DNA of 64,000 bases, taken from sequence record PZ452583.1. One strand, given 5' to 3'. A model generated the notes under the pieces. That model made no database searches. It had not been told where the DNA came from and was given only the letters and a program-made list of their open reading frames with translations. Every line of letters begins with the position of its first letter. The stretch's first letter is position 1. The translations under genes were made by a program, and so were the position numbers. Source of the stretch: a phage. Below are positions 2,129 to 62,644 of the stretch, piece after piece.

Positions 2129-2620
2129 ATGTTTGTAGATGATGTAACACGAGCGTTTGAATCTGGTGATTTTGCTCGACCTAACTTATTCCAAGTAGAA
2201 ATTTCTTATCTTGGACAAAATTTTACGTTCCAATGTAAAGCCACTGCTTTACCAGCTGGTATTGTAGAAAAAATTCCAGTCGGATTTATGAACCGTAAAA
2301 TTAACGTGGCAGGCGATCGTACATTCGATGACTGGACTGTTACAGTAATGAACGATGAAGCTCATGATGCTCGCCAGAAGTTTGTTGATTGGCAAAGCAT
2401 TGCTGCAGGACAAGGAAACGAAATTACTGGTGGAAAACCTGCAGAGTATAAAAAGAGCGCTATCGTTCGTCAATATGCTCGTGACGCTAAAACAGTAACA
2501 AAAGAAATTGAAATTAAAGGTCTGTGGCCTACTAACGTGGGTGAACTTCAATTAGATTGGGATTCAAACAATGAAATTCAAACCTTTGAAGTAACTCTTG
2601 CTCTCGATTATTGGGAATAA
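2129..2620 (+). CDS. 19: tail tube protein gp19
   Basis: 163-aa ORF, T4 gp19-like; two TATAAATA late promoters upstream. Confidence 0.95.
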   Translation: MFVDDVTRAFESGDFARPNLFQVEISYLGQNFTFQCKATALPAGIVEKIPVGFMNRKINVAGDRTFDDWTVTVMNDEAHDARQKFVDWQSIAAGQGNEITGGKPAEYKKSAIVRQYARDAKTVTKEIEIKGLWPTNVGELQLDWDSNNEIQTFEVTLALDYWE

Positions 2621-2652
2621 AATGAATGGGGAGAAATCCCCATCCTGCTTAA

Positions 2653-4277
<1,625 letters not shown>

Positions 4278-51332: not shown

Positions 51333-51340
51333 TATAAATA
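51333..51340 (+). promoter_or_regulatory. late promoter for gene 34
   Basis: exact TATAAATA. Confidence 0.7.
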
Positions 51341-51374: not shown

Positions 51375-54300
51375 ATGGCCGAGATTAAAAGAAAGTTCAG
51401 AGCAGAAGATGGTCTGGACGCAGGTGGTGATAAAATAATCAACGTAGCTTTAGCTGATCGTACCGTAGGAACTGACGGTGTTAACGTTGATTACTTAATT
51501 CAAGAAAACACAGTTCAACAATATGATCCAACTCGTGGATATTTAAAAGATTTTGTAATCATTTATGATAACCGCTTTTGGGCTGCTATAAATGATATTC
51601 CAAAACCAGCAGGAGCTTTTAATAGCGGACGCTGGAGAGCATTACGTACAGATGCTAACTGGATTACGGTTTCATCTGGTTCATATCAATTAAAATCTGG
51701 TGAAGCAATTTCGGTTAACACTGCAGCTGGAAATGACATTACGTTTACTTTACCGTCTTCTCCAATTGATGGTGATACTATCATTCTCCAAGATATTGGA
51801 GGAAAACCTGGAGTTAACCAAGTTTTAATTGTAGCTCCAGTGCAAAGTATTGTAAACTTTAGAGGTGAACAGGTACGTTCAGTACTAATGACTCATCCAA
51901 AGTCACAGCTAGTTTTAATTTTTAGTAATCGTCTGTGGCAAATGTATGTTGCTGATTATAGTAGAGAAGCTGTAATTGTAACACCAGCGAATACTTATCA
52001 AGCGCAATCAAATGATTTTATCGTACGTAGATTTACTTCTGCTGCACCAATTAATGTTAAACTTCCAAGATTTGCTAATCATGGCGATATTATTAATTTC
52101 GTTGATTTAGATAAACTGAATCCACTTTATCATACAATTGTTACTACATACGATGAAACGACTTCAGTACAAGAAGTTGGAACTCATTCCATTGAAGGCC
52201 GTACATCAATTGACGGTTTCTTGATGTTTGATGATAATGAGAAATTGTGGAGATTGTTTGACGGGGATAGTAAAGCGCGTTTACGCATTATAACGACTAA
52301 TTCTAATATTCGTCCAAACGAAGAAGTTATGGTATTTGGTGCGAATAACGGAACAACCCAAACAATTGAGCTTCAGCTTCCAACTAATATTTCTGTTGGT
52401 GATACTGTTAAAATTTCCATGAATTACATGAGAAAAGGACAAACAGTTAAAATCAAAGCTGCCGGTGAAGATAAAATTGCTTCTTCAGTTCAATTACTGC
52501 AATTCCCAAAACGCTCAGAATATCCGCCTGAAGCTGAATGGGTTACAGTCCAAGAATTAGTTTTTAACGGTGAAACTAATTATGTTCCAGTTTTACAACT
52601 TGCTTATATTGAAGATTCTGATGGAAAATATTGGGTTGTACAGCAAAACGTTCCAACTGTCGAAAGAGTAGATTCTTTAAATGATTCTACTAGAGCAAGA
52701 TTAGGCGTAATTGCTTTAGCTACACAAGCTCAAGCTAACGTCGATTTAGAAAATTCTCCACAAAAAGAATTAGCAATTACTCCAGAAACATTAGCTAACC
52801 GTACTGCTACTGAAACTCGTAGAGGTATTGCAAGAATAGCAACTACTGCTCAAGTGAATCAGAACACCACATTCTCTTTTGCTGATGATATTATCATCAC
52901 TCCTAAAAAGCTGAATGAAAGAACTGCTACAGAAACTCGCAGAGGTGTTGCAGAAATTGCTACTCAGCAAGAAACAAACGCAGGAACAGATGATACAACC
53001 ATCATTACTCCTAAAAAGCTTCAAGCTCGTCAAGGTTCTGAATCATTATCTGGTATTGTAACTTTTGTATCTACTGCAGGTGCTACTCCAGCTTCTAGCC
53101 GTGAATTAAATGGTACGAATGTTTATAATAAAAACACTAATAATTTAGTTGTTTCGCCAAAAGCTTTGGATCAGTATAAAGCTACTCCAACACAGCAAGG
53201 TGCAGTAATTTTAGCAGTTGAAAGTGAAGTAATTGCTGGTCAAAGTCAAGAAGGATGGGCAAATGCTGTTGTAACGCCAGAAACGTTACATAAAAAGACA
53301 TCAACTGATGCAAGAATTGGTTTAATTGAAATTGCTACGCAAAGTGAAGTTAATACAGGAACTGATTATACTCGTGCAGTCACTCCTAAAACTTTAAATG
53401 ACCGTAGAGCAACTGAAAGTTTAAGTGGTATAGCTGAAATTGCTACACAAGTTGAATTCGACGCAGGCGTCGACGATACTCGTATCTCTACACCATTAAA
53501 AATTAAAACCAGATTTAATAGTACTGATCGTACTTCTGTTGTTGCTCTATCTGGATTAGTTGAATCAGGAACTCTCTGGGACCATTATACCCTTAATATT
53601 CTTGAAGCAAATGAGACGCAACGTGGTACACTTCGTGTAGCTACACAAGTTGAAGCTGCTGCAGGAACATTAGATAATGTTTTAATAACTCCTAAAAAGC
53701 TTTTAGGTACTAAATCTACCGAATCGCAAGAAGGTGTTATTAAAGTTGCAACTCAGTCTGAAACTGTGACTGGAACGTCAGCGAACACTGCTGTATCTCC
53801 AAAAAATTTAAAATGGATTGTGCAGAGTGAACCTACTTGGGCAGCTACTACTGCAATAAGAGGTTTTGTTAAAACTTCATCTGGTTCAATTACATTCGTT
53901 GGTAATGATACAGTCGGTTCTACCCAAGATTTAGAACTGTATGAGAAAAATAGCTATGCGGTATCACCATATGAATTAAACCGTGTATTAGCAAATTATT
54001 TGCCATTAAAAGCAAAAGCTGCTGATACAAATTTATTGGATGGTCTAGATTCATCTCAGTTCATTCGTAGGGATATCGCACAGACGGTTAATGGTTCACT
54101 AACCTTAACCCAACAAACGAATCTGAGTGCCCCTCTTGTATCATCTAGTACTGCTACGTTTGGTGGATCAGTTTCGGCAAATAGTACATTAACTATTTCT
54201 AATACTGGAACGGCAACTCGTCTGATTTTTGAGAAAGGACCTCAAACTGGAACTAACCCAGCACAGACGATGACTATCAGAGTTTGGGGAAATCAGTTTG

Positions 54301-55244
54301 GTGGCGGATCAGATACAACGCGTTCTACTGTATTTGAAGTTGGTGATGAAACATCTAATCACTTTTATTCTCAACGTAATAAAGATGGGAATATAACGTT
54401 TAGCATTAATGGTACTGTGATGCCAATAAATGTTAACGCTTCAGGCACGTTAAATGCGAATGGCGTTGCAACATTCGGTCGTTCAGTTACAGCCAACGGT
54501 GAATTCATTAGCAAGTCTGCAAATGCTTTCAGAGCAATTAGTGGTGATTACGGATTCTTTATTCGCAATGATGCTGCTAATACCTATTTTATGCTCACTG
54601 CATCCGGTGATCAGACTGGCGGATTTAATGGATTACGTCCTTTGTCTATTAATAATGCATCTGGCCAAGTAACGATTGGTGAAAGCTTAATCATTGCCAA
54701 AGGTGCTACTATAAATTCTGGTGGTTTAACTGTTAACTCGAGAATTCGTTCTCAAGGTACTAAAACATCTGACTTATATACCCGTGCGCCAACATCTGAT
54801 ACTGTAGGATTCTGGTCAATTGATATTAACGATTCAGCCACTTATAACCAGTTCCCGGGTTATTTTAAAATGGTTGAAAAAACTAATGAAGTGACTGGAC
54901 TTCCGTACTTAGAACGTGGCGAAGAAGTTAAATCTCCTGGTACACTGACACAGTTTGGTAACACACTTGATTCGCTTTACCAAGATTGGATTACTTATCC
55001 AACGACACCAGAAGCGCGTACCACTCGCTGGACACGTACATGGCAGAAAACCAAAAACTCTTGGTCAAGTTTTGTTCAGGTATTTGACGGAGGTAACCCT
55101 CCTCAACCATCTGATATCGGTGCTTTACCATCTGATAATGCTACAATGGGGAATCTTACTATTCGTGATTTCTTACGAATTGGTAATGTTCGCATTATTC
55201 CTGACCCAGTGAATAAAACTGTTAAATTTGAATGGGTTGAATAA
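51375..55244 (+). CDS. 34: long tail fibre proximal subunit gp34
   Basis: 1289-aa ORF, T4 gp34 length; late promoter 51333-51340. Confidence 0.95.
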   Translation: MAEIKRKFRAEDGLDAGGDKIINVALADRTVGTDGVNVDYLIQENTVQQYDPTRGYLKDFVIIYDNRFWAAINDIPKPAGAFNSGRWRALRTDANWITVSSGSYQLKSGEAISVNTAAGNDITFTLPSSPIDGDTIILQDIGGKPGVNQVLIVAPVQSIVNFRGEQVRSVLMTHPKSQLVLIFSNRLWQMYVADYSREAVIVTPANTYQAQSNDFIVRRFTSAAPINVKLPRFANHGDIINFVDLDKLNPLYHTIVTTYDETTSVQEVGTHSIEGRTSIDGFLMFDDNEKLWRLFDGDSKARLRIITTNSNIRPNEEVMVFGANNGTTQTIELQLPTNISVGDTVKISMNYMRKGQTVKIKAAGEDKIASSVQLLQFPKRSEYPPEAEWVTVQELVFNGETNYVPVLQLAYIEDSDGKYWVVQQNVPTVERVDSLNDSTRARLGVIALATQAQANVDLENSPQKELAITPETLANRTATETRRGIARIATTAQVNQNTTFSFADDIIITPKKLNERTATETRRGVAEIATQQETNAGTDDTTIITPKKLQARQGSESLSGIVTFVSTAGATPASSRELNGTNVYNKNTNNLVVSPKALDQYKATPTQQGAVILAVESEVIAGQSQEGWANAVVTPETLHKKTSTDARIGLIEIATQSEVNTGTDYTRAVTPKTLNDRRATESLSGIAEIATQVEFDAGVDDTRISTPLKIKTRFNSTDRTSVVALSGLVESGTLWDHYTLNILEANETQRGTLRVATQVEAAAGTLDNVLITPKKLLGTKSTESQEGVIKVATQSETVTGTSANTAVSPKNLKWIVQSEPTWAATTAIRGFVKTSSGSITFVGNDTVGSTQDLELYEKNSYAVSPYELNRVLANYLPLKAKAADTNLLDGLDSSQFIRRDIAQTVNGSLTLTQQTNLSAPLVSSSTATFGGSVSANSTLTISNTGTATRLIFEKGPQTGTNPAQTMTIRVWGNQFGGGSDTTRSTVFEVGDETSNHFYSQRNKDGNITFSINGTVMPINVNASGTLNANGVATFGRSVTANGEFISKSANAFRAISGDYGFFIRNDAANTYFMLTASGDQTGGFNGLRPLSINNASGQVTIGESLIIAKGATINSGGLTVNSRIRSQGTKTSDLYTRAPTSDTVGFWSIDINDSATYNQFPGYFKMVEKTNEVTGLPYLERGEEVKSPGTLTQFGNTLDSLYQDWITYPTTPEARTTRWTRTWQKTKNSWSSFVQVFDGGNPPQPSDIGALPSDNATMGNLTIRDFLRIGNVRIIPDPVNKTVKFEWVE

Positions 55245-55252
55245 GAGGTATT

Positions 55253-56368
55253 ATGGAAAAATTTATGGCAGAGTTTGGACAAGGATATGTCCAAACGCCA
55301 TTTTTATCGGAAAGCAATTCAGTAAGATATAAAATAAGCATAGCGGGTTCTTGCCCGCTTTCTACAGCAGGACCATACGTTAAATTTCAGGATAATCCTG
55401 TAGGAAGTCAAACATTTAGCGCAGGCCTTCATTTAAGAGTTTTTGACCCTTCCACCGGAGCGTTAGTTGATAGTAAATCATATGCTTTTTCGACTTCAAA
55501 TGATACTACATCAGCTGCTTTTGCTAGCTTCATGAATTCTTTGACAAATAACAGAATTGTTGCTATATTAACTAACGGAAAGGTTAATTTTCCTCCTGAA
55601 GTAGTATCTTGGTTAAGAACAGCAGGAACGTCTGCTTTTCCATCTGACTCTGTATTGTCAAGATTCGACGTATCATATGCTGCTTTTTATACTTCTTCTA
55701 AAAGAGCTATTGCATTAGAGCATGTTAAACTGAGTAATAGAAAAAGCACAGATGATTATCAAACTATTTTAGATGTTGTATTTGACAGTTTAGAAGACGT
55801 CGGAGCTACCGGGTTTCCAAGAAGAACGTATGAAAGCGTTGAGCAATTTATGTCAGCGGTTGGTGGAACTAATAACGAAATTGCAAGATTACCAACTTCA
55901 GCTGCTATAAGTAAACTCTCTGATTATAATTTAATTCCTGGTGACGTTCTTTATCTTAAAGCCCAGTTATATGCCGATGCTGATTTACTTGCGCTTGGAA
56001 CTACAAATATATCTATCCGTTTTTATAATGCATCTAATGGATATATTTCCTCGACACAAGCTGAGTTTACTGGACAGGCTGGGTCTTGGGAATTAAAGGA
56101 AGACTATGTAGTTGTTCCAGAAAATGCAGTTGGATTTACGATATATGCACAGAGAACTGCTCAAGCGGGACAAGGCGGTATGCGAAATTTAAGCTTTTCT
56201 GAAGTATCAAGAAATGGCGGCATTTCAAAACCTGCTGAATTTGGCGTCAATGGTATTCGTGTTAATTATATCTGTGAATCTGCTTCACCTCCGGATATAA
56301 TGGTACTTCCTACGCAAGCATCGTCTAAAACTGGTAAAGTGTTTGGGCAAGAATTTAGAGAAGTATAA
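55253..56368 (+). CDS. 35: long tail fibre hinge (knee) protein gp35
   Basis: 371-aa ORF, T4 gp35-like. Confidence 0.9.
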   Translation: MEKFMAEFGQGYVQTPFLSESNSVRYKISIAGSCPLSTAGPYVKFQDNPVGSQTFSAGLHLRVFDPSTGALVDSKSYAFSTSNDTTSAAFASFMNSLTNNRIVAILTNGKVNFPPEVVSWLRTAGTSAFPSDSVLSRFDVSYAAFYTSSKRAIALEHVKLSNRKSTDDYQTILDVVFDSLEDVGATGFPRRTYESVEQFMSAVGGTNNEIARLPTSAAISKLSDYNLIPGDVLYLKAQLYADADLLALGTTNISIRFYNASNGYISSTQAEFTGQAGSWELKEDYVVVPENAVGFTIYAQRTAQAGQGGMRNLSFSEVSRNGGISKPAEFGVNGIRVNYICESASPPDIMVLPTQASSKTGKVFGQEFREV

Positions 56369-56373
56369 ATTGA

Positions 56374-56400
56374 GGGAGCCTTCGGGTTCCCTTTTTCTTT
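56374..56400 (+). terminator. rho-independent terminator after gene 35
   Basis: GGGAGCC-TTCG-GGTTCCC then TTTTTCTTT. Confidence 0.75.
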
Positions 56401-56407
56401 ATAAATA
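56400..56407 (+). promoter_or_regulatory. late promoter for gene 36
   Basis: exact TATAAATA right after the gene 35 terminator. Confidence 0.7.
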
Positions 56408-56430: not shown

Positions 56431-57096
56431 ATGGCTGATTTAAAAGTAGGTTCAACAACCGGAGGCTCTGTCATTTGGCATCAAGGAAATTTTCCATTGA
56501 ATCCAGCCGGTGACGATGTACTCTATAAATCATTTAAAATATATTCAGAATATAATAAACCACAGGCAGCTGATAACGATTTCGTTTCTAAAGCTAATGG
56601 TGGTACTTATGCATCAAAGGTAACATTTAACGGCGGCGTCCAAGTCCCGTATGCTGTAAACAACACAAACCCATGCGGTATTTATCCAGGTAACGGTGAT
56701 AATGCTACTTTTGCTGTAGCAAATATTGATATTGTTTCGTGGAATGGTATTGGTTTTAAATCATCGCAAGGTTCAGCAGCCCGAACTGTTGTAATTAATG
56801 CACGTAATGGTGATATTAATACAAAAGGTGTTGTGTCTGCGGCAGGTCAAGTAAGAAGTGATGCAGCTGCTCCTATAGCAGCGAATGACCTTACTAGAAA
56901 GGACTATGTTGATGGAGCAATAAATACTGTTACAGCAAATGCGAACTCTAGAGTGTTGCGTTCTGGCGACACTATGATAGGTAATTTAACCGCGCCAAAC
57001 TTTTTCTCACAGAATCCTGCGTCTCAACCTTCACATGTTCCACGATTTGACCAAATCGTAATTAAGGATTCTGTTCAAGATTTCGGCTATTATTAA
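56431..57096 (+). CDS. 36: long tail fibre distal connector gp36
   Basis: 221-aa ORF; late promoter 56400-56407. Confidence 0.9.
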   Translation: MADLKVGSTTGGSVIWHQGNFPLNPAGDDVLYKSFKIYSEYNKPQAADNDFVSKANGGTYASKVTFNGGVQVPYAVNNTNPCGIYPGNGDNATFAVANIDIVSWNGIGFKSSQGSAARTVVINARNGDINTKGVVSAAGQVRSDAAAPIAANDLTRKDYVDGAINTVTANANSRVLRSGDTMIGNLTAPNFFSQNPASQPSHVPRFDQIVIKDSVQDFGYY

Positions 57097-57104
57097 GAGG
57101 ACTT

Positions 57105-60100
57105 ATGGCTACTTTAAAACAAATACAATTTAAAAGAAGCAAAACTGCAGGTCAACGTCCTGCTGCTTCAGTATTAGCCGAAGGTGAATTGGCTATAAAC
57201 TTAAAAGACCGTACTCTTTTTACTAAAGATGACTCGGGAAATATTATTGATTTAAGCATTACCGCTGGCGGTAATATTAGTGGAAATATCACTCAAACTG
57301 GCGATTATACACAGACTGGAAAATTTAATTTAATTGGTCCGCAAATTGTAGCAAGCGGTGGATATATTGAGTTTAATTATCGTACTACTGGAAGTGGGGC
57401 TTGGTCCGGTCAACACACTGCAAAAGCTCCAATTTTTGTAGATTTAAGCTCAGCTACTTCCACATCTGAATATAATCCTATAATTAAACAGCGCTTTAAA
57501 GATGGAACTTTTTCATTAGGTACTTTAGTTTCTGAAGGTTCGTTGAAGATTCATTATATTGATGAAACTGGTCAATCTAAATATTGGACATTTGCGCGCT
57601 CAGGTAATTTTCAAGTTGATTCTGGTAATTTATTAGTATCTGGTGGGTATTTAGTCGCTCAGAGTAATATTGAAACAAGAACAGGTTCTTTGATTGGTCC
57701 ATCTGTTGTAACTAAAAATATTTCATTTGATACGAAAGCGTTTGGACAATACGATTCGCAGTCATTAGTTCAATATGTTTATCCTGGAACTGGTGAAACA
57801 AACGGAATTAATTACCTTCGTAAATTCCGTGCAAAATCTGGTGGTACGATTTATCATGAATTAGCTTCTGCACAAACCGGAAAAAGTGATGAACTGTCTT
57901 GGTGGACCGGTAATACAGCCGTTAATAAACAAATGGGCCTTCGCAATGATGGGTCTTTAGTGTTGCGACGCTCACTCGCAATTGGTACAATTACAACAGA
58001 TGAAAACATTAATAATTACGGCTCCACTGGAGCAATGGGTGAATGCTATATAGTCATTGGAGATGCCGCAACTGGTGTATCATATAAAAGATCTGGTGTA
58101 TATGATTTAGTTGCTAATGGTCTTTCTATCGCGTCTATTACTCCTGACAGTTTCCGTAGTACTCGTAAAGCATTATTTGGACGTTCAGAAGACCAAGGCG
58201 GAACATGGAATATGCCTGGAACGAACGCTGCGCTTTTATCAGTTCAAACACAAGCTGATGGAAACTCTGCCGGTGATGGTCAAACCCACATTGGATATAA
58301 TTCTGGCGGTAAAATGAATCATTATTTTCGTGGTACTGGTCAGATGAATATCAATACCCAACAAGGTATGGAAATTAATCCAGGACTGTTGAAACTAACA
58401 ACCGGTACAAACAATGTAATGTTCTATGCTGATGGCGGTATTACATCTGTTAAGCAGCTTTCAATTTATAACGGCGTATATTTAGCAGCCAATAATTCTA
58501 CTGCTGGGCTAACATTCGCTCCAACTACTACAATTGATGGTACTAAGCAAATTTTGTGGGAAGGTGGTAAGCGTGCTGGTCAGAATAAAAGCTATGTAAC
58601 TGTTAAAGCGTGGGGTAATTCATTTAACGCATCTGGCGATCGTAATCGTGAAACAGTTTTTGAAGTAGCTGACGGACAAGGTTATTATTTTTATTCCCAA
58701 CGCGTAGCCCCAAGCGGCTCAGAAACTACTGGTCCTGTTGTAACCCAGTTTGCTGGAGCTGTTAATGCTAGAGGAAGTATTATTACTGACGGAAGTTTTA
58801 AAGTTAATGGATTAAGCACTTTAGTCGGTAATGTTACCATGTCTAATGGTTTGTTTGTCCAAGGTGGTTCTTCTATTACTGGACAAGTTAAAATCGGCGG
58901 AACTGCAGATGCATTAAGAATTTGGAATGCTGAATACGGGGCTATTTTCCGTCGTTCTGAAGATAAGCTTTATATTATTCCAACTCCGCAGAATGCTGGT
59001 GAATCAGGTGGTATTTCTAATTTACGTCCGTTCTATATTACATTAAGTACTGGTAAAGTTTCCATGGTTCATGATGTAGATATCGGCGGCGGTAGATTTA
59101 AAGTAGAAGTGGCTGGAACTACGGCTGGTCAACGTATTATAGTTAATGCAGCGAGCGATGCTATTAGAATAAATGCTCCAACACAAGAGTCTTCTAACTT
59201 CATTCAAGGACGTAAGGCTGATGTGAATAAATGGTATTTGGGTATTGGCGATGGCGGCAACGTCGTTCGTATGCACAGCTACACATATTCACATGGTATT
59301 GCATTAAATTCTGATTCTGTCGATATTACTAAGCCTCTTAAAGTCGGAAACGCCCAACTAGGAACTGACGGTAATATTACCAATGGTTCAGGAAACTTTG
59401 CCAACTTAAATACCACGTTAAATCGTAAAGTTAATTCTGGATTTATTACTTATGGAGCAACCTCTGGATGGTATAAGTTTGCAACAGTAACAATGCCACA
59501 ATCCACTTCGACAGTCTTCTTTAAAATAGTTGGAGGTTCTGGATTTAATAGCGGATTATTCACACAATGTAATATTGCTGAAATTGTTTTACGTACTAGT
59601 AATGAAAGACCTGCTGACTTAAATGCTGCATTATACACAAGAACAATTGGAGCTGCATTTAAAGATATTGCAGTTAATAACGTCTCTGGAGATACATATG
59701 ACATTTATGTTTCTGCTGGAACATATTGTAATCAATTAGCTTGTGAGTGGTCATGTACCGAAAATGCTACTGTTAGTGTTATTGGTATTAACTCATCTAC
59801 ACAATCACCTGTAGATGCTCTTCCAGATACAGCAGTTAACGGTCAAGTTGCTAATGTTCTTAATAACTTAGTTGATCGCGGTAAAGTTAAGCGTTATGAA
59901 GCCGATTCTGAAATAGCTATTAATAACCAAACCGGTATTCGTATCAGAAGCAACAGCGATAAAACTGGTTCTGTTGCTACAATGCTACGAAATGATGGCG
60001 GTAGTTTTTATATTCTGTTTACAGATAAAAATGCCACCGATGGCGCAGCAACTGTTAATGGTGATTGGAATAGTAAACGTCCTTTCGCAATTAACTTAAC

Positions 60101-60866
60101 AACCGGCGAAGTGATGATGAATAACGGCATAGCTGTTCGCAGCGCTGCTTTATTCTATAATAGCATAAACGTCAAAGATAATGGTTCTATTAACTTTGAT
60201 AAATCAGGCGCTAACCCGAGAAATATGAGAATATTTCATGCTGGCGATGCTTCTCGCGGTAACCGTATTGAAATTGCCGATGAAACTAACTATATTGCTT
60301 ACTTTGAAAAAACACCAGGTGGAGCTAATCGCTTTGTAGTAAATAATGCTACTGTAGCTGGTGTTAATCAAATGAATTCATTTGGTATTAACATCAATAA
60401 CGCACTTGGTGGAAATAGTATAGCGTTTGGCGATAATGACACTGGTATTAAGCAAAATGGCGATGGATTATTAGACATATATGCGAATGGTGTACAGACT
60501 TTCCGTTTCCAAAACGGTGATTTGTACTCATACAAAAATATAAATGCTCCAAACGTTTATATTCGTTCTGATATTCGTTTAAAATCTAACTTCAAACCTA
60601 TCGAAAATGCACTTGATAAAGTTGAAAAACTTAACGGTGTCATTTACGATAAAGCTGAATATATCGGTGGAGAGGCAATTGAAACTGAAGCGGGTATTGT
60701 GGCTCAAACGTTACAAGACGTTTTACCAGAAGCTGTCCGTGAAACAGAAGACAGTAAGGGTAATAAAATACTCACTGTTTCTTCTCAAGCCCAGATTGCT
60801 CTTCTGGTTGAAGCTGTGAAAACACTTTCTGCTCGTGTAAAAGAACTTGAATCTAAACTTATGTAA
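57105..60866 (+). CDS. 37: long tail fibre distal subunit gp37 with C-terminal intramolecular chaperone domain
   Basis: 1253-aa ORF; N-terminus is the conserved gp36-binding region; C-terminal about 100 aa (SDIRLKSNF...ARVKELESKLM) resembles autoproteolytic intramolecular chaperone domains. Confidence 0.92.
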   Translation: MATLKQIQFKRSKTAGQRPAASVLAEGELAINLKDRTLFTKDDSGNIIDLSITAGGNISGNITQTGDYTQTGKFNLIGPQIVASGGYIEFNYRTTGSGAWSGQHTAKAPIFVDLSSATSTSEYNPIIKQRFKDGTFSLGTLVSEGSLKIHYIDETGQSKYWTFARSGNFQVDSGNLLVSGGYLVAQSNIETRTGSLIGPSVVTKNISFDTKAFGQYDSQSLVQYVYPGTGETNGINYLRKFRAKSGGTIYHELASAQTGKSDELSWWTGNTAVNKQMGLRNDGSLVLRRSLAIGTITTDENINNYGSTGAMGECYIVIGDAATGVSYKRSGVYDLVANGLSIASITPDSFRSTRKALFGRSEDQGGTWNMPGTNAALLSVQTQADGNSAGDGQTHIGYNSGGKMNHYFRGTGQMNINTQQGMEINPGLLKLTTGTNNVMFYADGGITSVKQLSIYNGVYLAANNSTAGLTFAPTTTIDGTKQILWEGGKRAGQNKSYVTVKAWGNSFNASGDRNRETVFEVADGQGYYFYSQRVAPSGSETTGPVVTQFAGAVNARGSIITDGSFKVNGLSTLVGNVTMSNGLFVQGGSSITGQVKIGGTADALRIWNAEYGAIFRRSEDKLYIIPTPQNAGESGGISNLRPFYITLSTGKVSMVHDVDIGGGRFKVEVAGTTAGQRIIVNAASDAIRINAPTQESSNFIQGRKADVNKWYLGIGDGGNVVRMHSYTYSHGIALNSDSVDITKPLKVGNAQLGTDGNITNGSGNFANLNTTLNRKVNSGFITYGATSGWYKFATVTMPQSTSTVFFKIVGGSGFNSGLFTQCNIAEIVLRTSNERPADLNAALYTRTIGAAFKDIAVNNVSGDTYDIYVSAGTYCNQLACEWSCTENATVSVIGINSSTQSPVDALPDTAVNGQVANVLNNLVDRGKVKRYEADSEIAINNQTGIRIRSNSDKTGSVATMLRNDGGSFYILFTDKNATDGAATVNGDWNSKRPFAINLTTGEVMMNNGIAVRSAALFYNSINVKDNGSINFDKSGANPRNMRIFHAGDASRGNRIEIADETNYIAYFEKTPGGANRFVVNNATVAGVNQMNSFGININNALGGNSIAFGDNDTGIKQNGDGLLDIYANGVQTFRFQNGDLYSYKNINAPNVYIRSDIRLKSNFKPIENALDKVEKLNGVIYDKAEYIGGEAIETEAGIVAQTLQDVLPEAVRETEDSKGNKILTVSSQAQIALLVEAVKTLSARVKELESKLM

Positions 60867-60867
60867 A

Positions 60868-60885
60868 AGAGGGCTTCGGCCCTCT
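60868..60885 (+). terminator. hairpin between genes 37 and 38
   Basis: AGAGGGC-TTCG-GCCCTCT directly before the gene 38 SD AAGGA; weak U-tract. Confidence 0.45.
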
Positions 60886-60896
60886 AAGGATTTTTA

Positions 60897-61682
60897 ATGG
60901 CAATTGTAGGTGTTCCTGGCTGGATTGGTGAATCTGCCGTGAATGAAACTGGACAACGCTGGATGGATGCTGCAATGAAAGCAGTTCGCGTTTCAGTTCC
61001 TGGCTGGATGAGCTCAATGGCTGGACAATCTAAAGAAGTATATTACAGCATTGGTGCTAGCAATTCTTATAATAAAGACACGTTAATAAACTGGATAAAA
61101 GCCCAAGGAAGCACTCCTGTTGTTATTACTATTACAGGAAATATTGTTTCTCAATCTACTGGTGTTCCATGCTTAGATTTTCCTAGCTCATTAACTAATG
61201 CATACGTGACACTTAATATCAATTCAGGCGTGCATGTTTGGGGCCGTGGCGGGAATGGCGGAAATAACTCTGCCGGTGGAGCAGGAGGAACTGCAATAAA
61301 TAATGGAATTGGAACTAGATTGCGTATTAATAACAATGGTGTTATCGCAGGAGGCGGTGGCGGAGGCGGTGGCGGATACTACTCTCCTTTTTCACAAATG
61401 AAATTGACTTTTGGCGGAGGAGGCGGTCGTCCATTTGGTGCTGCTGGCGGGTCTGCTAATATGGAACAAGGAGCTACTGCTGGTACTATTTCTGCACCTG
61501 GTAAAGGGTCTGTCAATGGTATCTATAATGGCGGGAATGGTGGTGATGCCGGAGCTGCAGGAGGTAAATGTAATATTCGTGGTCAAGGATCAGAATATAA
61601 CGGTGGTGCTGCGGGTAAAGCTGTTACTGGTAATGCTCCAACTTGGACTAAAGTTGGCACAATATATGGTTCAAGAGTATAA
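60897..61682 (+). CDS. 38: receptor-recognising tail fibre adhesin gp38 (T2/T6 type)
   Basis: 261-aa ORF with conserved N-terminal gp37-attachment region and C-terminal glycine-rich motifs separated by variable segments. Confidence 0.85.
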   Translation: MAIVGVPGWIGESAVNETGQRWMDAAMKAVRVSVPGWMSSMAGQSKEVYYSIGASNSYNKDTLINWIKAQGSTPVVITITGNIVSQSTGVPCLDFPSSLTNAYVTLNINSGVHVWGRGGNGGNNSAGGAGGTAINNGIGTRLRINNNGVIAGGGGGGGGGYYSPFSQMKLTFGGGGGRPFGAAGGSANMEQGATAGTISAPGKGSVNGIYNGGNGGDAGAAGGKCNIRGQGSEYNGGAAGKAVTGNAPTWTKVGTIYGSRV

Positions 61683-61714
61683 TTTTTGAATAAATATCCT
61701 TAAAAGGAGGGTCT

Positions 61715-62371
61715 ATGGCAGCACCTAGAATATCATTTTCGCCCTCTGATATTCTATTTGGTGTTCTAGATCGCTTGTTCAAAGATAACGCTACCGGGAA
61801 AGTTCTTGCTTCCCGGGTAGCTGTCGTAATTCTTTTATTTATGATGGCGATTGTTTGGTATAGGGGAGATAGTTTCTTTGAGTACTATAAGCAATCAAAG
61901 TATGAAACATACAGTGAAATTATTGAAAAGGAAAGAAATGCACGCTTTGAATCTGTCGCCCTGGAACAACTCCAGATAGTTCATATATCATCTGAGGCAG
62001 ACTTTAGTGCGGTGTATTCTTTCCGCCCTAAAAACTTAAACTATTTTGTTGATATTATAGCATATGAAGGGAAATTACCTTCAACAATAAGTGAAAAATC
62101 ACTTGGAGGATATCCTGTTGATAAAACTATGGATGAATATGCGGTTCATTTAAATGGACGTCATTATTATTCCGATTCAAAATTTGCTTTTTTACCAACT
62201 AAAAAGCCTACTCCCGAAATAAACTACATGTACAGTTGTCCATATTTTAATTTGGATAATATCTATGCTGGAACGATAACCATGTACTGGTATAGAAATG
62301 ATCATATAAGTAATGACCGCCTTGAATCAATATGTGCTCAGGCGGCCAGAATATTAGGAAGGGCTAAATAA
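61715..62371 (+). CDS. t: holin T
   Basis: 218-aa ORF, T4 T holin-like (N-terminal TM helix, large periplasmic domain). Confidence 0.92.
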   Translation: MAAPRISFSPSDILFGVLDRLFKDNATGKVLASRVAVVILLFMMAIVWYRGDSFFEYYKQSKYETYSEIIEKERNARFESVALEQLQIVHISSEADFSAVYSFRPKNLNYFVDIIAYEGKLPSTISEKSLGGYPVDKTMDEYAVHLNGRHYYSDSKFAFLPTKKPTPEINYMYSCPYFNLDNIYAGTITMYWYRNDHISNDRLESICAQAARILGRAK

Positions 62372-62644
62372 TTATTTGTTCGTATACATCTCTAGATATC
62401 GATATACACCCTCAAAACCCTCGTTGAATTCGTCGATGAGGGTTTTCTTATCTTCTTGAGTTAATTCAGAAACAATTTTACGGAATGAATTCTGATTTAA
62501 TTTTCTACCTTCATGCGTTACTCCAATCTCATTCAGAAATGCAATAAAATTAGCACGATTCTCAACAATATCTTCTCTGGAAAATTTAATCAAAATAGAC
62601 GCAACAGTAATAATTTCACGAACTGTATCAATGTTTTTATTCAT
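62372..62644 (-). CDS. asiA: anti-sigma70 factor AsiA
   Basis: 90-aa ORF, AsiA-like sequence; early promoter upstream. Confidence 0.92.
   Translation of the reverse strand: MNKNIDTVREIITVASILIKFSREDIVENRANFIAFLNEIGVTHEGRKLNQNSFRKIVSELTQEDKKTLIDEFNEGFEGVYRYLEMYTNK

Follow-up and report, generated by a model that had tools for sequence, protein, structure and literature searches.

We analysed the genes for the long tail fibre's tip, g37 and g38, in a 64,000-nucleotide stretch of phage DNA (sequence record PZ452583.1; the whole stretch is referred to here as the window). Judged from sequence, and with a probability of about 0.9, these two genes belong to a Tequatrovirus and encode the distal portion of its long tail fibre, which follows the T2 rather than the T4 design; namely, a gp37 that is processed by a Peptidase_S74 domain and a gp38 adhesin of the Tsx-binding type. 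No sequence feature in the window contradicts this combination of T2 design and Tsx recognition. The module consists of two open reading frames (ORFs), both with ATG start codons in the program-made ORF list, and the coordinates and lengths that an initial annotation had given for them are exact to the base (lengths in amino acids, aa).

57105-60866, + strand: g37, long tail fibre distal subunit precursor, 1253 aa (ORF list; phrog_1699 over the full length, E = 0)
60897-61682, + strand: g38, tail fibre tip adhesin, 261 aa (Pfam GP38, E = 3.6e-72, and Gp38_N, E = 7.2e-18; structure 6F45_D)

Family and layout of the gp38 adhesin

The Pfam family GP38 (PF05268) matches gp38 aa 47-261 with 243.2 bits against a cut-off of 25, and Gp38_N (PF21721) matches aa 1-42 with 64.8 bits. 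In gp37, the score of Peptidase_S74 (PF13884) on aa 1155-1212 is 56.5 bits (cut-off 22; E = 3.5e-15). The GP38 and Peptidase_S74 scores are far above the curated Pfam cut-offs, and these matches are therefore not due to chance. The PHROG matches of gp38 are phrog_2056, at 2.6e-105, and phrog_1121. Comparison with solved structures places the gp38 of phage S16 (6F45_D) on aa 8-259 (E = 2.4e-49), and a PP01-type gp38 fusion (9V85_A) matches at 1e-33. By these matches gp38 is homologous to the solved three-domain structure, which comprises an attachment bundle, a beta-helix and a polyglycine sandwich. The initial annotation had described gp38 as an adhesin with glycine-rich motifs, and the family and structure matches bear this out. 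The domains and segments that are used below are as follows.

60897-61034, + strand: gp38 aa 1-46, attachment domain with the tryptophan prongs W9, W22 and W37 (Gp38_N on aa 1-42; alignment)
61242-61616, + strand: gp38 aa 116-240, polyglycine specificity domain with glycine-rich motifs 1-5 (GRM1-5) and hypervariable segments 1-4 (HVS1-4) (alignments and segment table)
61263-61349, + strand: HVS1 (gp38 alignments)
61377-61412, + strand: HVS2 (gp38 alignments)
61440-61529, + strand: HVS3 (gp38 alignments)
61545-61601, + strand: HVS4 (gp38 alignments)

Alignments show that W9, W22 and W37 are invariant across the window, T2, T6, Bas39, Bas43, Bas45 and S16; in S16, three tryptophans dock gp38 on the gp37 tip (PMC6851490). 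Glycine makes up 23% of gp38 overall and 36% of aa 111-245, with 10 glycines in the first 110 aa. The runs are GRGGNGG at aa 116-122 (GRM1), GGAGG at 127-131, nine consecutive glycines at 152-160 (GRM2), GGGGGRPFG at 173-181 (GRM3), GGNGG at 212-216 (GRM4) and GGAAG at 236-240 (GRM5). The five motifs, which correspond to the definition of gp38 adhesins by Trojet et al. (PMC3157838), stand in fixed order with the four hypervariable segments between them. The GRMs are conserved among the aligned gp38 proteins, GRM3-5 being nearly invariant, and the intervening segments differ among phages.

Receptor assignment

The gp38 of the window is identical at 260 of 261 positions to that of phages FriedrichMiescher (Bas39), JLBYU22 and JK38. 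The sole difference, K28R, lies in the attachment domain, and K28 is also present in the Tsx phage TadeuszReichstein (Bas43). From HVS1 to HVS4, the window allele shows 100% identity to Bas39 and JK38. For Bas39, BASEL supplementary file 5 names Tsx as primary receptor (the main BASEL paper gives the assignment only in a colour-coded figure), and JK38 has been typed as Tsx/Kdo by RB-TnSeq (bioRxiv 10.64898/2026.04.02.716166). Because the hypervariable segments are identical to those of two typed Tsx users, the predicted receptor is Tsx, and reversible adsorption most likely proceeds via this nucleoside channel.

The assignment draws on the role of these segments. Variable segments of gp38 determine specificity (PMC3157838, PMC12032242, bioRxiv 10.64898/2026.04.02.716166), in agreement with the proposal of the initial annotation that the segments between the GRMs would set it, and exchanging gp38 from HVS2 onward suffices to switch porin specificity (bioRxiv 10.64898/2026.04.02.716166). 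An exchange from HVS2 onward has been made for CM8/EV240. We compared HVS2-4 of the window with those of phages of different receptor use, with PaulHMueller as the OmpA reference. Identities to the window were as follows.

T6 (Tsx): 47/61
PaulHMueller, Bas45 (OmpA): 35/61
TadeuszReichstein, Bas43 (Tsx): 30/61
S16: 16/61
T2 (FadL/OmpF): 13/61

Among classical phages, the hypervariable segments of the window are thus closest to those of T6, the archetypal Tsx phage. Nucleotide comparison of g38 with FriedrichMiescher, JLBYU22 and JK38 reveals 30-38 differences, with 29-36 synonymous codon changes and 1 non-synonymous change. This excess of synonymous changes indicates strong purifying selection, and the 'hypervariable' segments are frozen within the Tsx allele.

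Several observations weigh against reading the receptor from the allele. Changes of a single residue in a hypervariable segment can switch or broaden specificity, as in the Q206L example of RB51/RB68 (bioRxiv 10.64898/2026.04.02.716166) and in PST versus T6 (PMC3157838); an allele-based prediction is safe here only because the hypervariable segments are identical to those of typed phages. The K28R substitution separates the window from those typed phages and is located in the domain that attaches gp38 to the fibre. In addition, the gp37 shafts of Bas39 and JK38 partly differ from that of the window (identity to Bas39 is 57-71% in aa 601-800), and gp37 may itself contribute to host range.

C-terminal chaperone and predicted self-cleavage of gp37

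The C-terminal part of gp37 contains the mature tip, the chaperone domain and a short terminal helix.

60393-60566, + strand: gp37 aa 1097-1154, mature distal tip ending in ...NVYIR, predicted gp38 docking surface (match to the S16 gp37 tip, 6F45_A; alignment with S16)
60567-60863, + strand: gp37 aa 1155-1253, intramolecular chaperone, Peptidase_S74 (Pfam PF13884)
60795-60863, + strand: gp37 aa 1231-1253, C-terminal amphipathic heptad helix (a/d positions I, L, V, L, V, L, L)

The Peptidase_S74 match covers profile positions 1-58, and profile position 1 falls on S1155, from which 99 aa extend to the C-terminus. The motif SDIRLK (aa 1155-1160) holds a Ser/Lys dyad, S1155/K1160, at canonical spacing (Lys five residues after Ser; S-D-x-R-x-K), and the S-D-x-R-x-K motif is kept in the gp37 proteins of T2, T6, K3 and S16. 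Over the whole chaperone domain, identity to the window is 100% for T2 and K3 and 43% for T6. When the gp37 C-terminus is taken alone, further matches are the gp37 chain of S16 in 6F45 and the auto-processing domain of MYRF (7DC3). The MYRF domain is a known relative of S74. The last 23 residues show a clean 3-4 hydrophobic spacing (I1231, L1234, V1238, L1241, V1245, L1248 and L1252). The initial annotation had predicted a chaperone module with SDIRLK, which stands on the profile match, the Ser/Lys motif and the identity to T2 and K3; its 'coiled-coil tail' is a fair term for the short amphipathic helix with its heptad pattern.

The window sequence NVYIR/SDIRLK aligns onto DLNVS/SDRRIKK of S16 (slashes mark the cleavage position). 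According to PMC7917993, in a statement that cites Dunne et al. 2018, S16 gp37 cuts itself at this sequence, and the cut bares the gp38 docking surface. The predicted self-cleavage site of the window gp37 lies between R1154 and S1155, and gp37 probably removes its folding helper by cutting itself.

Proposed mechanism

In the proposed sequence of events, gp37 would be synthesised as a 1253-aa precursor, the last 99 residues of which would act as a Peptidase_S74 intramolecular chaperone and aid the folding of three gp37 chains into a trimeric beta-helical fibre. Self-cleavage at R1154/S1155, catalysed by the Ser/Lys pair, would release the chaperone, leaving a fibre that ends in ...NVYIR. One gp38 would then dock on the bared trimeric tip through its N-terminal helical bundle with W9, W22 and W37, and its polyglycine sandwich would display the hypervariable loops to the receptor. 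Binding of these loops to Tsx would give reversible adsorption, which may be followed by contact of the short fibres with the lipopolysaccharide core and then by tail contraction. We infer the cleavage, the 3:1 assembly and the binding to Tsx by homology.

Alternative explanations

The adhesin might recognise a receptor other than Tsx (OmpA, OmpF, FadL, OmpC or OmpW) or Tsx together with a second receptor, as is the case for phage PST with its T6-like adhesin. Overall, the C-terminal half of gp38 is about equally similar to that of the OmpA user PaulHMueller (79%) and that of T6 (79%), a few substitutions in the hypervariable segments are known to add or switch receptors, and the window allele departs from T6 at 14 of the 61 HVS2-4 positions. 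However, the four segments are shared without change with Bas39 and JK38, each of which was independently typed as Tsx-dependent, and HVS2 is identical to T6 at 10 of 12 positions but to PaulHMueller at only 3 of 12, which makes this alternative decidedly unlikely. The receptor list of the initial annotation (OmpA, OmpC, OmpF, Tsx or FadL) can accordingly be narrowed, as the gp38 allele matches that of the typed Tsx users Bas39 and JK38. A related and doubtful idea is that the Tsx-type allele, with its 14 differences from T6, has a broader or dual specificity when carried on a K3-like distal shaft. If true, the phage might also use another porin, or variant forms of Tsx from Shigella or further enterobacteria, which the screens of its near-identical relatives on E. 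coli K-12 did not show.

Two further alternatives concern the design of the fibre tip. Close homologues of gp38 are often labelled 'distal long tail fiber assembly catalyst' or 'tail assembly protein' in database records, which would fit a protein that merely assists assembly as in T4 and is absent from the virion, with the C-terminus of gp37 binding the receptor. These labels are a carry-over of T4 nomenclature and provide no evidence for a chaperone role. BLASTP found no detectable similarity between the window gp38 and T4 gp38 (E = 20), and PHROG scans place T4 gp38 in phrog_105 and the window gp38 in phrog_2056; a T4-type assembly chaperone was rejected on these two results, as the initial annotation had anticipated in setting gp38 apart from the T4 type. 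For phrog_1121 (profile length 181), which matches gp38 aa 1-87, membership in the T4 family had been suspected, and this was also rejected when the scan of T4 gp38 returned phrog_105. Further points against such a role are that gp37 has a removable S74 domain instead of the Collar and His-box tip of T4, that crystal structure 6F45 shows the homologue from S16 bound to the tip of gp37, and that T6 g38 amber mutants produce normal-looking virions that are unable to adsorb (PMC3157838). The assembly-chaperone explanation is so improbable as to be nearly negligible. It is also very improbable that the S74 domain is kept in the mature fibre in an inactive or structural form, with gp38 binding elsewhere. 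The Pfam match spans only the first 58 of the 99 residues of the C-terminal domain, but the S1155/K1160 dyad is intact at canonical spacing and T2 has an identical domain. Drexler and colleagues are reported to have described, in 1986, that T2 gp37 is processed at its C-terminus.

The gp37 shaft

Two domains upstream of the tip are recognised by Pfam profiles.

58626-59039, + strand: gp37 aa 508-645, Gp34_trimer domain, common to the C-terminal part of gp34 (PF21446, E = 3.8e-09)
59160-59381, + strand: gp37 aa 686-759, gp37 trimerization region (PF20744, E = 9.7e-12)

A broader region, aa 467-699 (58503-59201), matches the gp34 structures PDB 4UXE/5NXF with E ~4e-12. On the evidence of these matches, the middle region of gp37 and the C-terminal part of gp34 are homologues, and represent a known module that is common to the proximal and distal half-fibres. 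The Pfam scan of the window gp37 returned neither the T4-type Collar domain nor His-x-His Phage_fiber repeats. The same scan applied to controls found S74 in T2 and T6 gp37, whereas T4 gp37 has Collar and Phage_fiber but no S74.

The closest relative of gp37 changes along the protein: aa 1-100 are closest to T2 (97% identity) and aa 801-1100 to K3 (92-95%). Compared with JLBYU22, identity is 96-100% in every segment of the whole protein. The initial annotation had pointed to the length of gp37, and the protein is indeed longer than that of T4 (1026 aa). Length is not a distinctive feature, however, as the T2-type gp37 proteins of T6 (994 aa), K3 (1243 aa) and T2 (1341 aa) span 994-1341 aa; a length of 1253 aa is therefore unremarkable and is long only against T4.

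Hairpin between g37 and g38

The short spacer between the two genes contains an RNA hairpin and the ribosome-binding site of g38.

60868-60885, + strand: RNA hairpin AGAGGGC-UUCG-GCCCUCU between the g37 stop codon and the g38 ribosome-binding site (sequence, fold energy)
60886-60890, + strand: Shine-Dalgarno sequence AAGGA of g38, directly after the hairpin

The hairpin has a 7-bp GC-rich stem and a UUCG tetraloop (-13.4 kcal/mol, z = -2.1) and is flagged by a terminator scan. A hairpin occurs at the same place in T2, K3, T4, T6 and S16. The letters of the stem differ in T4, T6 and S16 while the pairing is kept, for example AAGGGGC-TTT-GCCCCTT in T6 and AGAGCC-TAC-GGCTCT in S16. The hairpin is identical in JLBYU22, and both the hairpin and the ribosome-binding site are identical in K3, the record of which (X04747) annotates the hairpin as a potential terminator. 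A clean intrinsic terminator was considered for the window and rejected, as the T-run begins 5 nt past the stem, where it overlaps with the ribosome-binding region of g38. The hairpin, which covaries across T-even phages, might be a functional RNA element: it might stabilise the RNA or act as an attenuator that sets the output of gp38 relative to gp37, given one adhesin per three fibre chains.

Gene order and late transcription signals

Over its first 25 kb, the window shares ~98% identity with Tequatroviruses of the RB18 and RB51 kind and is therefore a typical T4-like coliphage genome. ORF list, Pfam and PHROG profiles together give the canonical T-even long-tail-fibre block, g34-g35-g36-g37-g38-t. 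Gene 38 lies directly 3' of g37 and 5' of the holin gene t, an order that is shared with T2, T6, S16, Bas39 and JLBYU22. The neighbours of the module and the late promoter motif are listed here.

51375-55244: gp34 (Pfam/PHROG profiles)
55253-56368: gp35 (Pfam/PHROG profiles)
56400-56407, + strand: T4-type late promoter motif TATAAATA, 5' of g36 (exact motif search)
56431-57096, + strand: gp36, distal hinge connector linking gp37 to the proximal half-fibre (Pfam Phage_T4_gp36, E = 1.8e-43; phrog_1425)
61715-62371, + strand: holin t, downstream boundary of the module (Pfam Phage_holin_T, E = 5.4e-117)

The motif TATAAATA at 56400 is the probable start of a late transcript that comprises g36, g37 and g38; exact motif search found a second copy at 51333, upstream of g34. 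Directly after g35, at 56372-56393, lies another UUCG hairpin with a T-run behind it; the 56400-56407 motif comes next, upstream of g36. The region 56372-56407 looks like a terminator-promoter junction that would make two late transcription units of the fibre genes.

Other features were observed around the module. A near-consensus sigma-70-like promoter at the end of g38 (61654-61683) combines TTGGCA, an 18-nt spacer and TATAAT, with 11 of 12 matches, and sits upstream of holin t. The g38-t spacer also contains AATAAATA (61690-61697), which has one mismatch to the late-promoter motif; both of these candidates are consensus matches only. An inverted repeat of 14 bp with a terminator-like score lies at 62414-62446, inside the minus-strand asiA ORF (62372-62644). 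Finally, aa 58-127 of gp35, the proximal hinge connector, match the Pfam family ILEI (Interleukin-like EMT inducer, PF15711) with E = 9.4e-09, above the curated cut-off; one would not expect this family name for a hinge protein of phage fibres.

Novelty and significance

Database records cover the module well: 13 records cover at least 80% of its 4578 bp, and 21 phage-collection records have a gp38 identity of at least 99%. The gp38 allele is present in about 20 Tequatrovirus genomes on deposit. The architecture of the module, its processing and structure, and the receptor of this gp38 allele are already known from the literature. The T2-type architecture has been known since the 1980s from T2, K3 and Ox2, and the S16 structure was solved in 2018. 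The value of the analysis is practical only: sequence allows a confident prediction of Tsx as primary receptor and of the form to which gp37 is processed. Such predictions could be used in the choice of phages for cocktails, in foreseeing resistance by loss of tsx and in the design of adhesin swaps, although they add no new biology.

Comparison with known systems

The closest overall counterpart is Escherichia phage JLBYU22 (OK272484), in which the 4578-bp g37-g38 module is 97.0% identical at the nucleotide level over 100% of its length. Its gp37 also has 1253 aa, with 24 amino acid differences from the window, and its gp38 has one (K28R). The nucleotide sequences differ at 107 positions of g37 and at 30 of g38, and most of these differences are synonymous. 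Residue 1153, beside the predicted cleavage site, is I in the window and T in JLBYU22. Bas39 FriedrichMiescher (MZ501066) and Shigella phage JK38 (MK962755) have the same gene order as the window; the Bas39 gp37 is 1260 aa long and, as noted above, only partly conserved in aa 601-800. The JK38 record contains a perfect (100%) 730-bp tandem duplication within g37, at locus positions 2276-3005 and 3006-3735. As 730 is not divisible by 3, g37 of JK38 is annotated as two overlapping coding sequences; the duplication may be real, with a frameshift, or may have arisen as an artefact of assembly. No tandem repeat of this 730-bp type is present in the window.

T2 (AP018813) shares the architecture of the window, with an S74 chaperone and an adhesin. 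Identity to its gp37 is 97% at the N-terminus, 93% in the tip (aa 1101-1154) and 100% in the chaperone, and 44 of 46 residues of the gp38 attachment domain are the same. In contrast, the T2 gp37 (1341 aa) is only 23-59% identical to the window in aa 401-1100, and the hypervariable segments of its gp38, the receptor of which is FadL or OmpF, are unrelated to those of the window. The pattern is reversed in T6. The T6 gp38 (MH550421), the classical Tsx adhesin, has 261 aa as in the window and aligns without gaps; all five GRMs are identical, as are 10 of 12 residues of HVS2, 23 of 30 of HVS3 and 14 of 19 of HVS4, but the first half is divergent (30 of 46 identical in the attachment domain and 24 of 69 in the beta-helix). 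The T6 gp37 (994 aa) is mostly 10-34% identical to that of the window, and its tip 34%. K3 uses OmpA via a different gp38 allele. What was compared here is K3 gp37 (X04747), which is only 22% identical to the window in aa 101-200.

The gp37-gp38 tip of Salmonella phage S16 (PDB 6F45) is homologous to the gp37 tip and chaperone of the window and to all of gp38, and it serves as a structural model with a trimeric tip, a single adhesin, tryptophan prongs and a polyglycine sandwich (PMC6851490). S16 belongs to another genus (Gelderlandvirus), has a gp37 of 749 aa and a gp38 of 249 aa, and its hypervariable segments are unrelated to those of the window; its receptor is Salmonella OmpC according to the title of Marti et al. 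2013, as listed in the references of PMC7917993.

Because the gp37 tip is 93% identical to T2 versus 34% to T6, and the specificity loops are T6-like, the module is a recombinant of known parts. On these alignments it is a mosaic in which specificity loops of the T6 type sit on a fibre and docking interface of the T2/K3 type. The initial annotation had called the module 'T2/T6-type', of which the T2 part holds for gp37 and for the attachment half of gp38, both being T2/K3-type, and the T6 part applies only to the specificity loops. This arrangement is in keeping with the exchange of modules that Trojet et al. described (PMC3157838).

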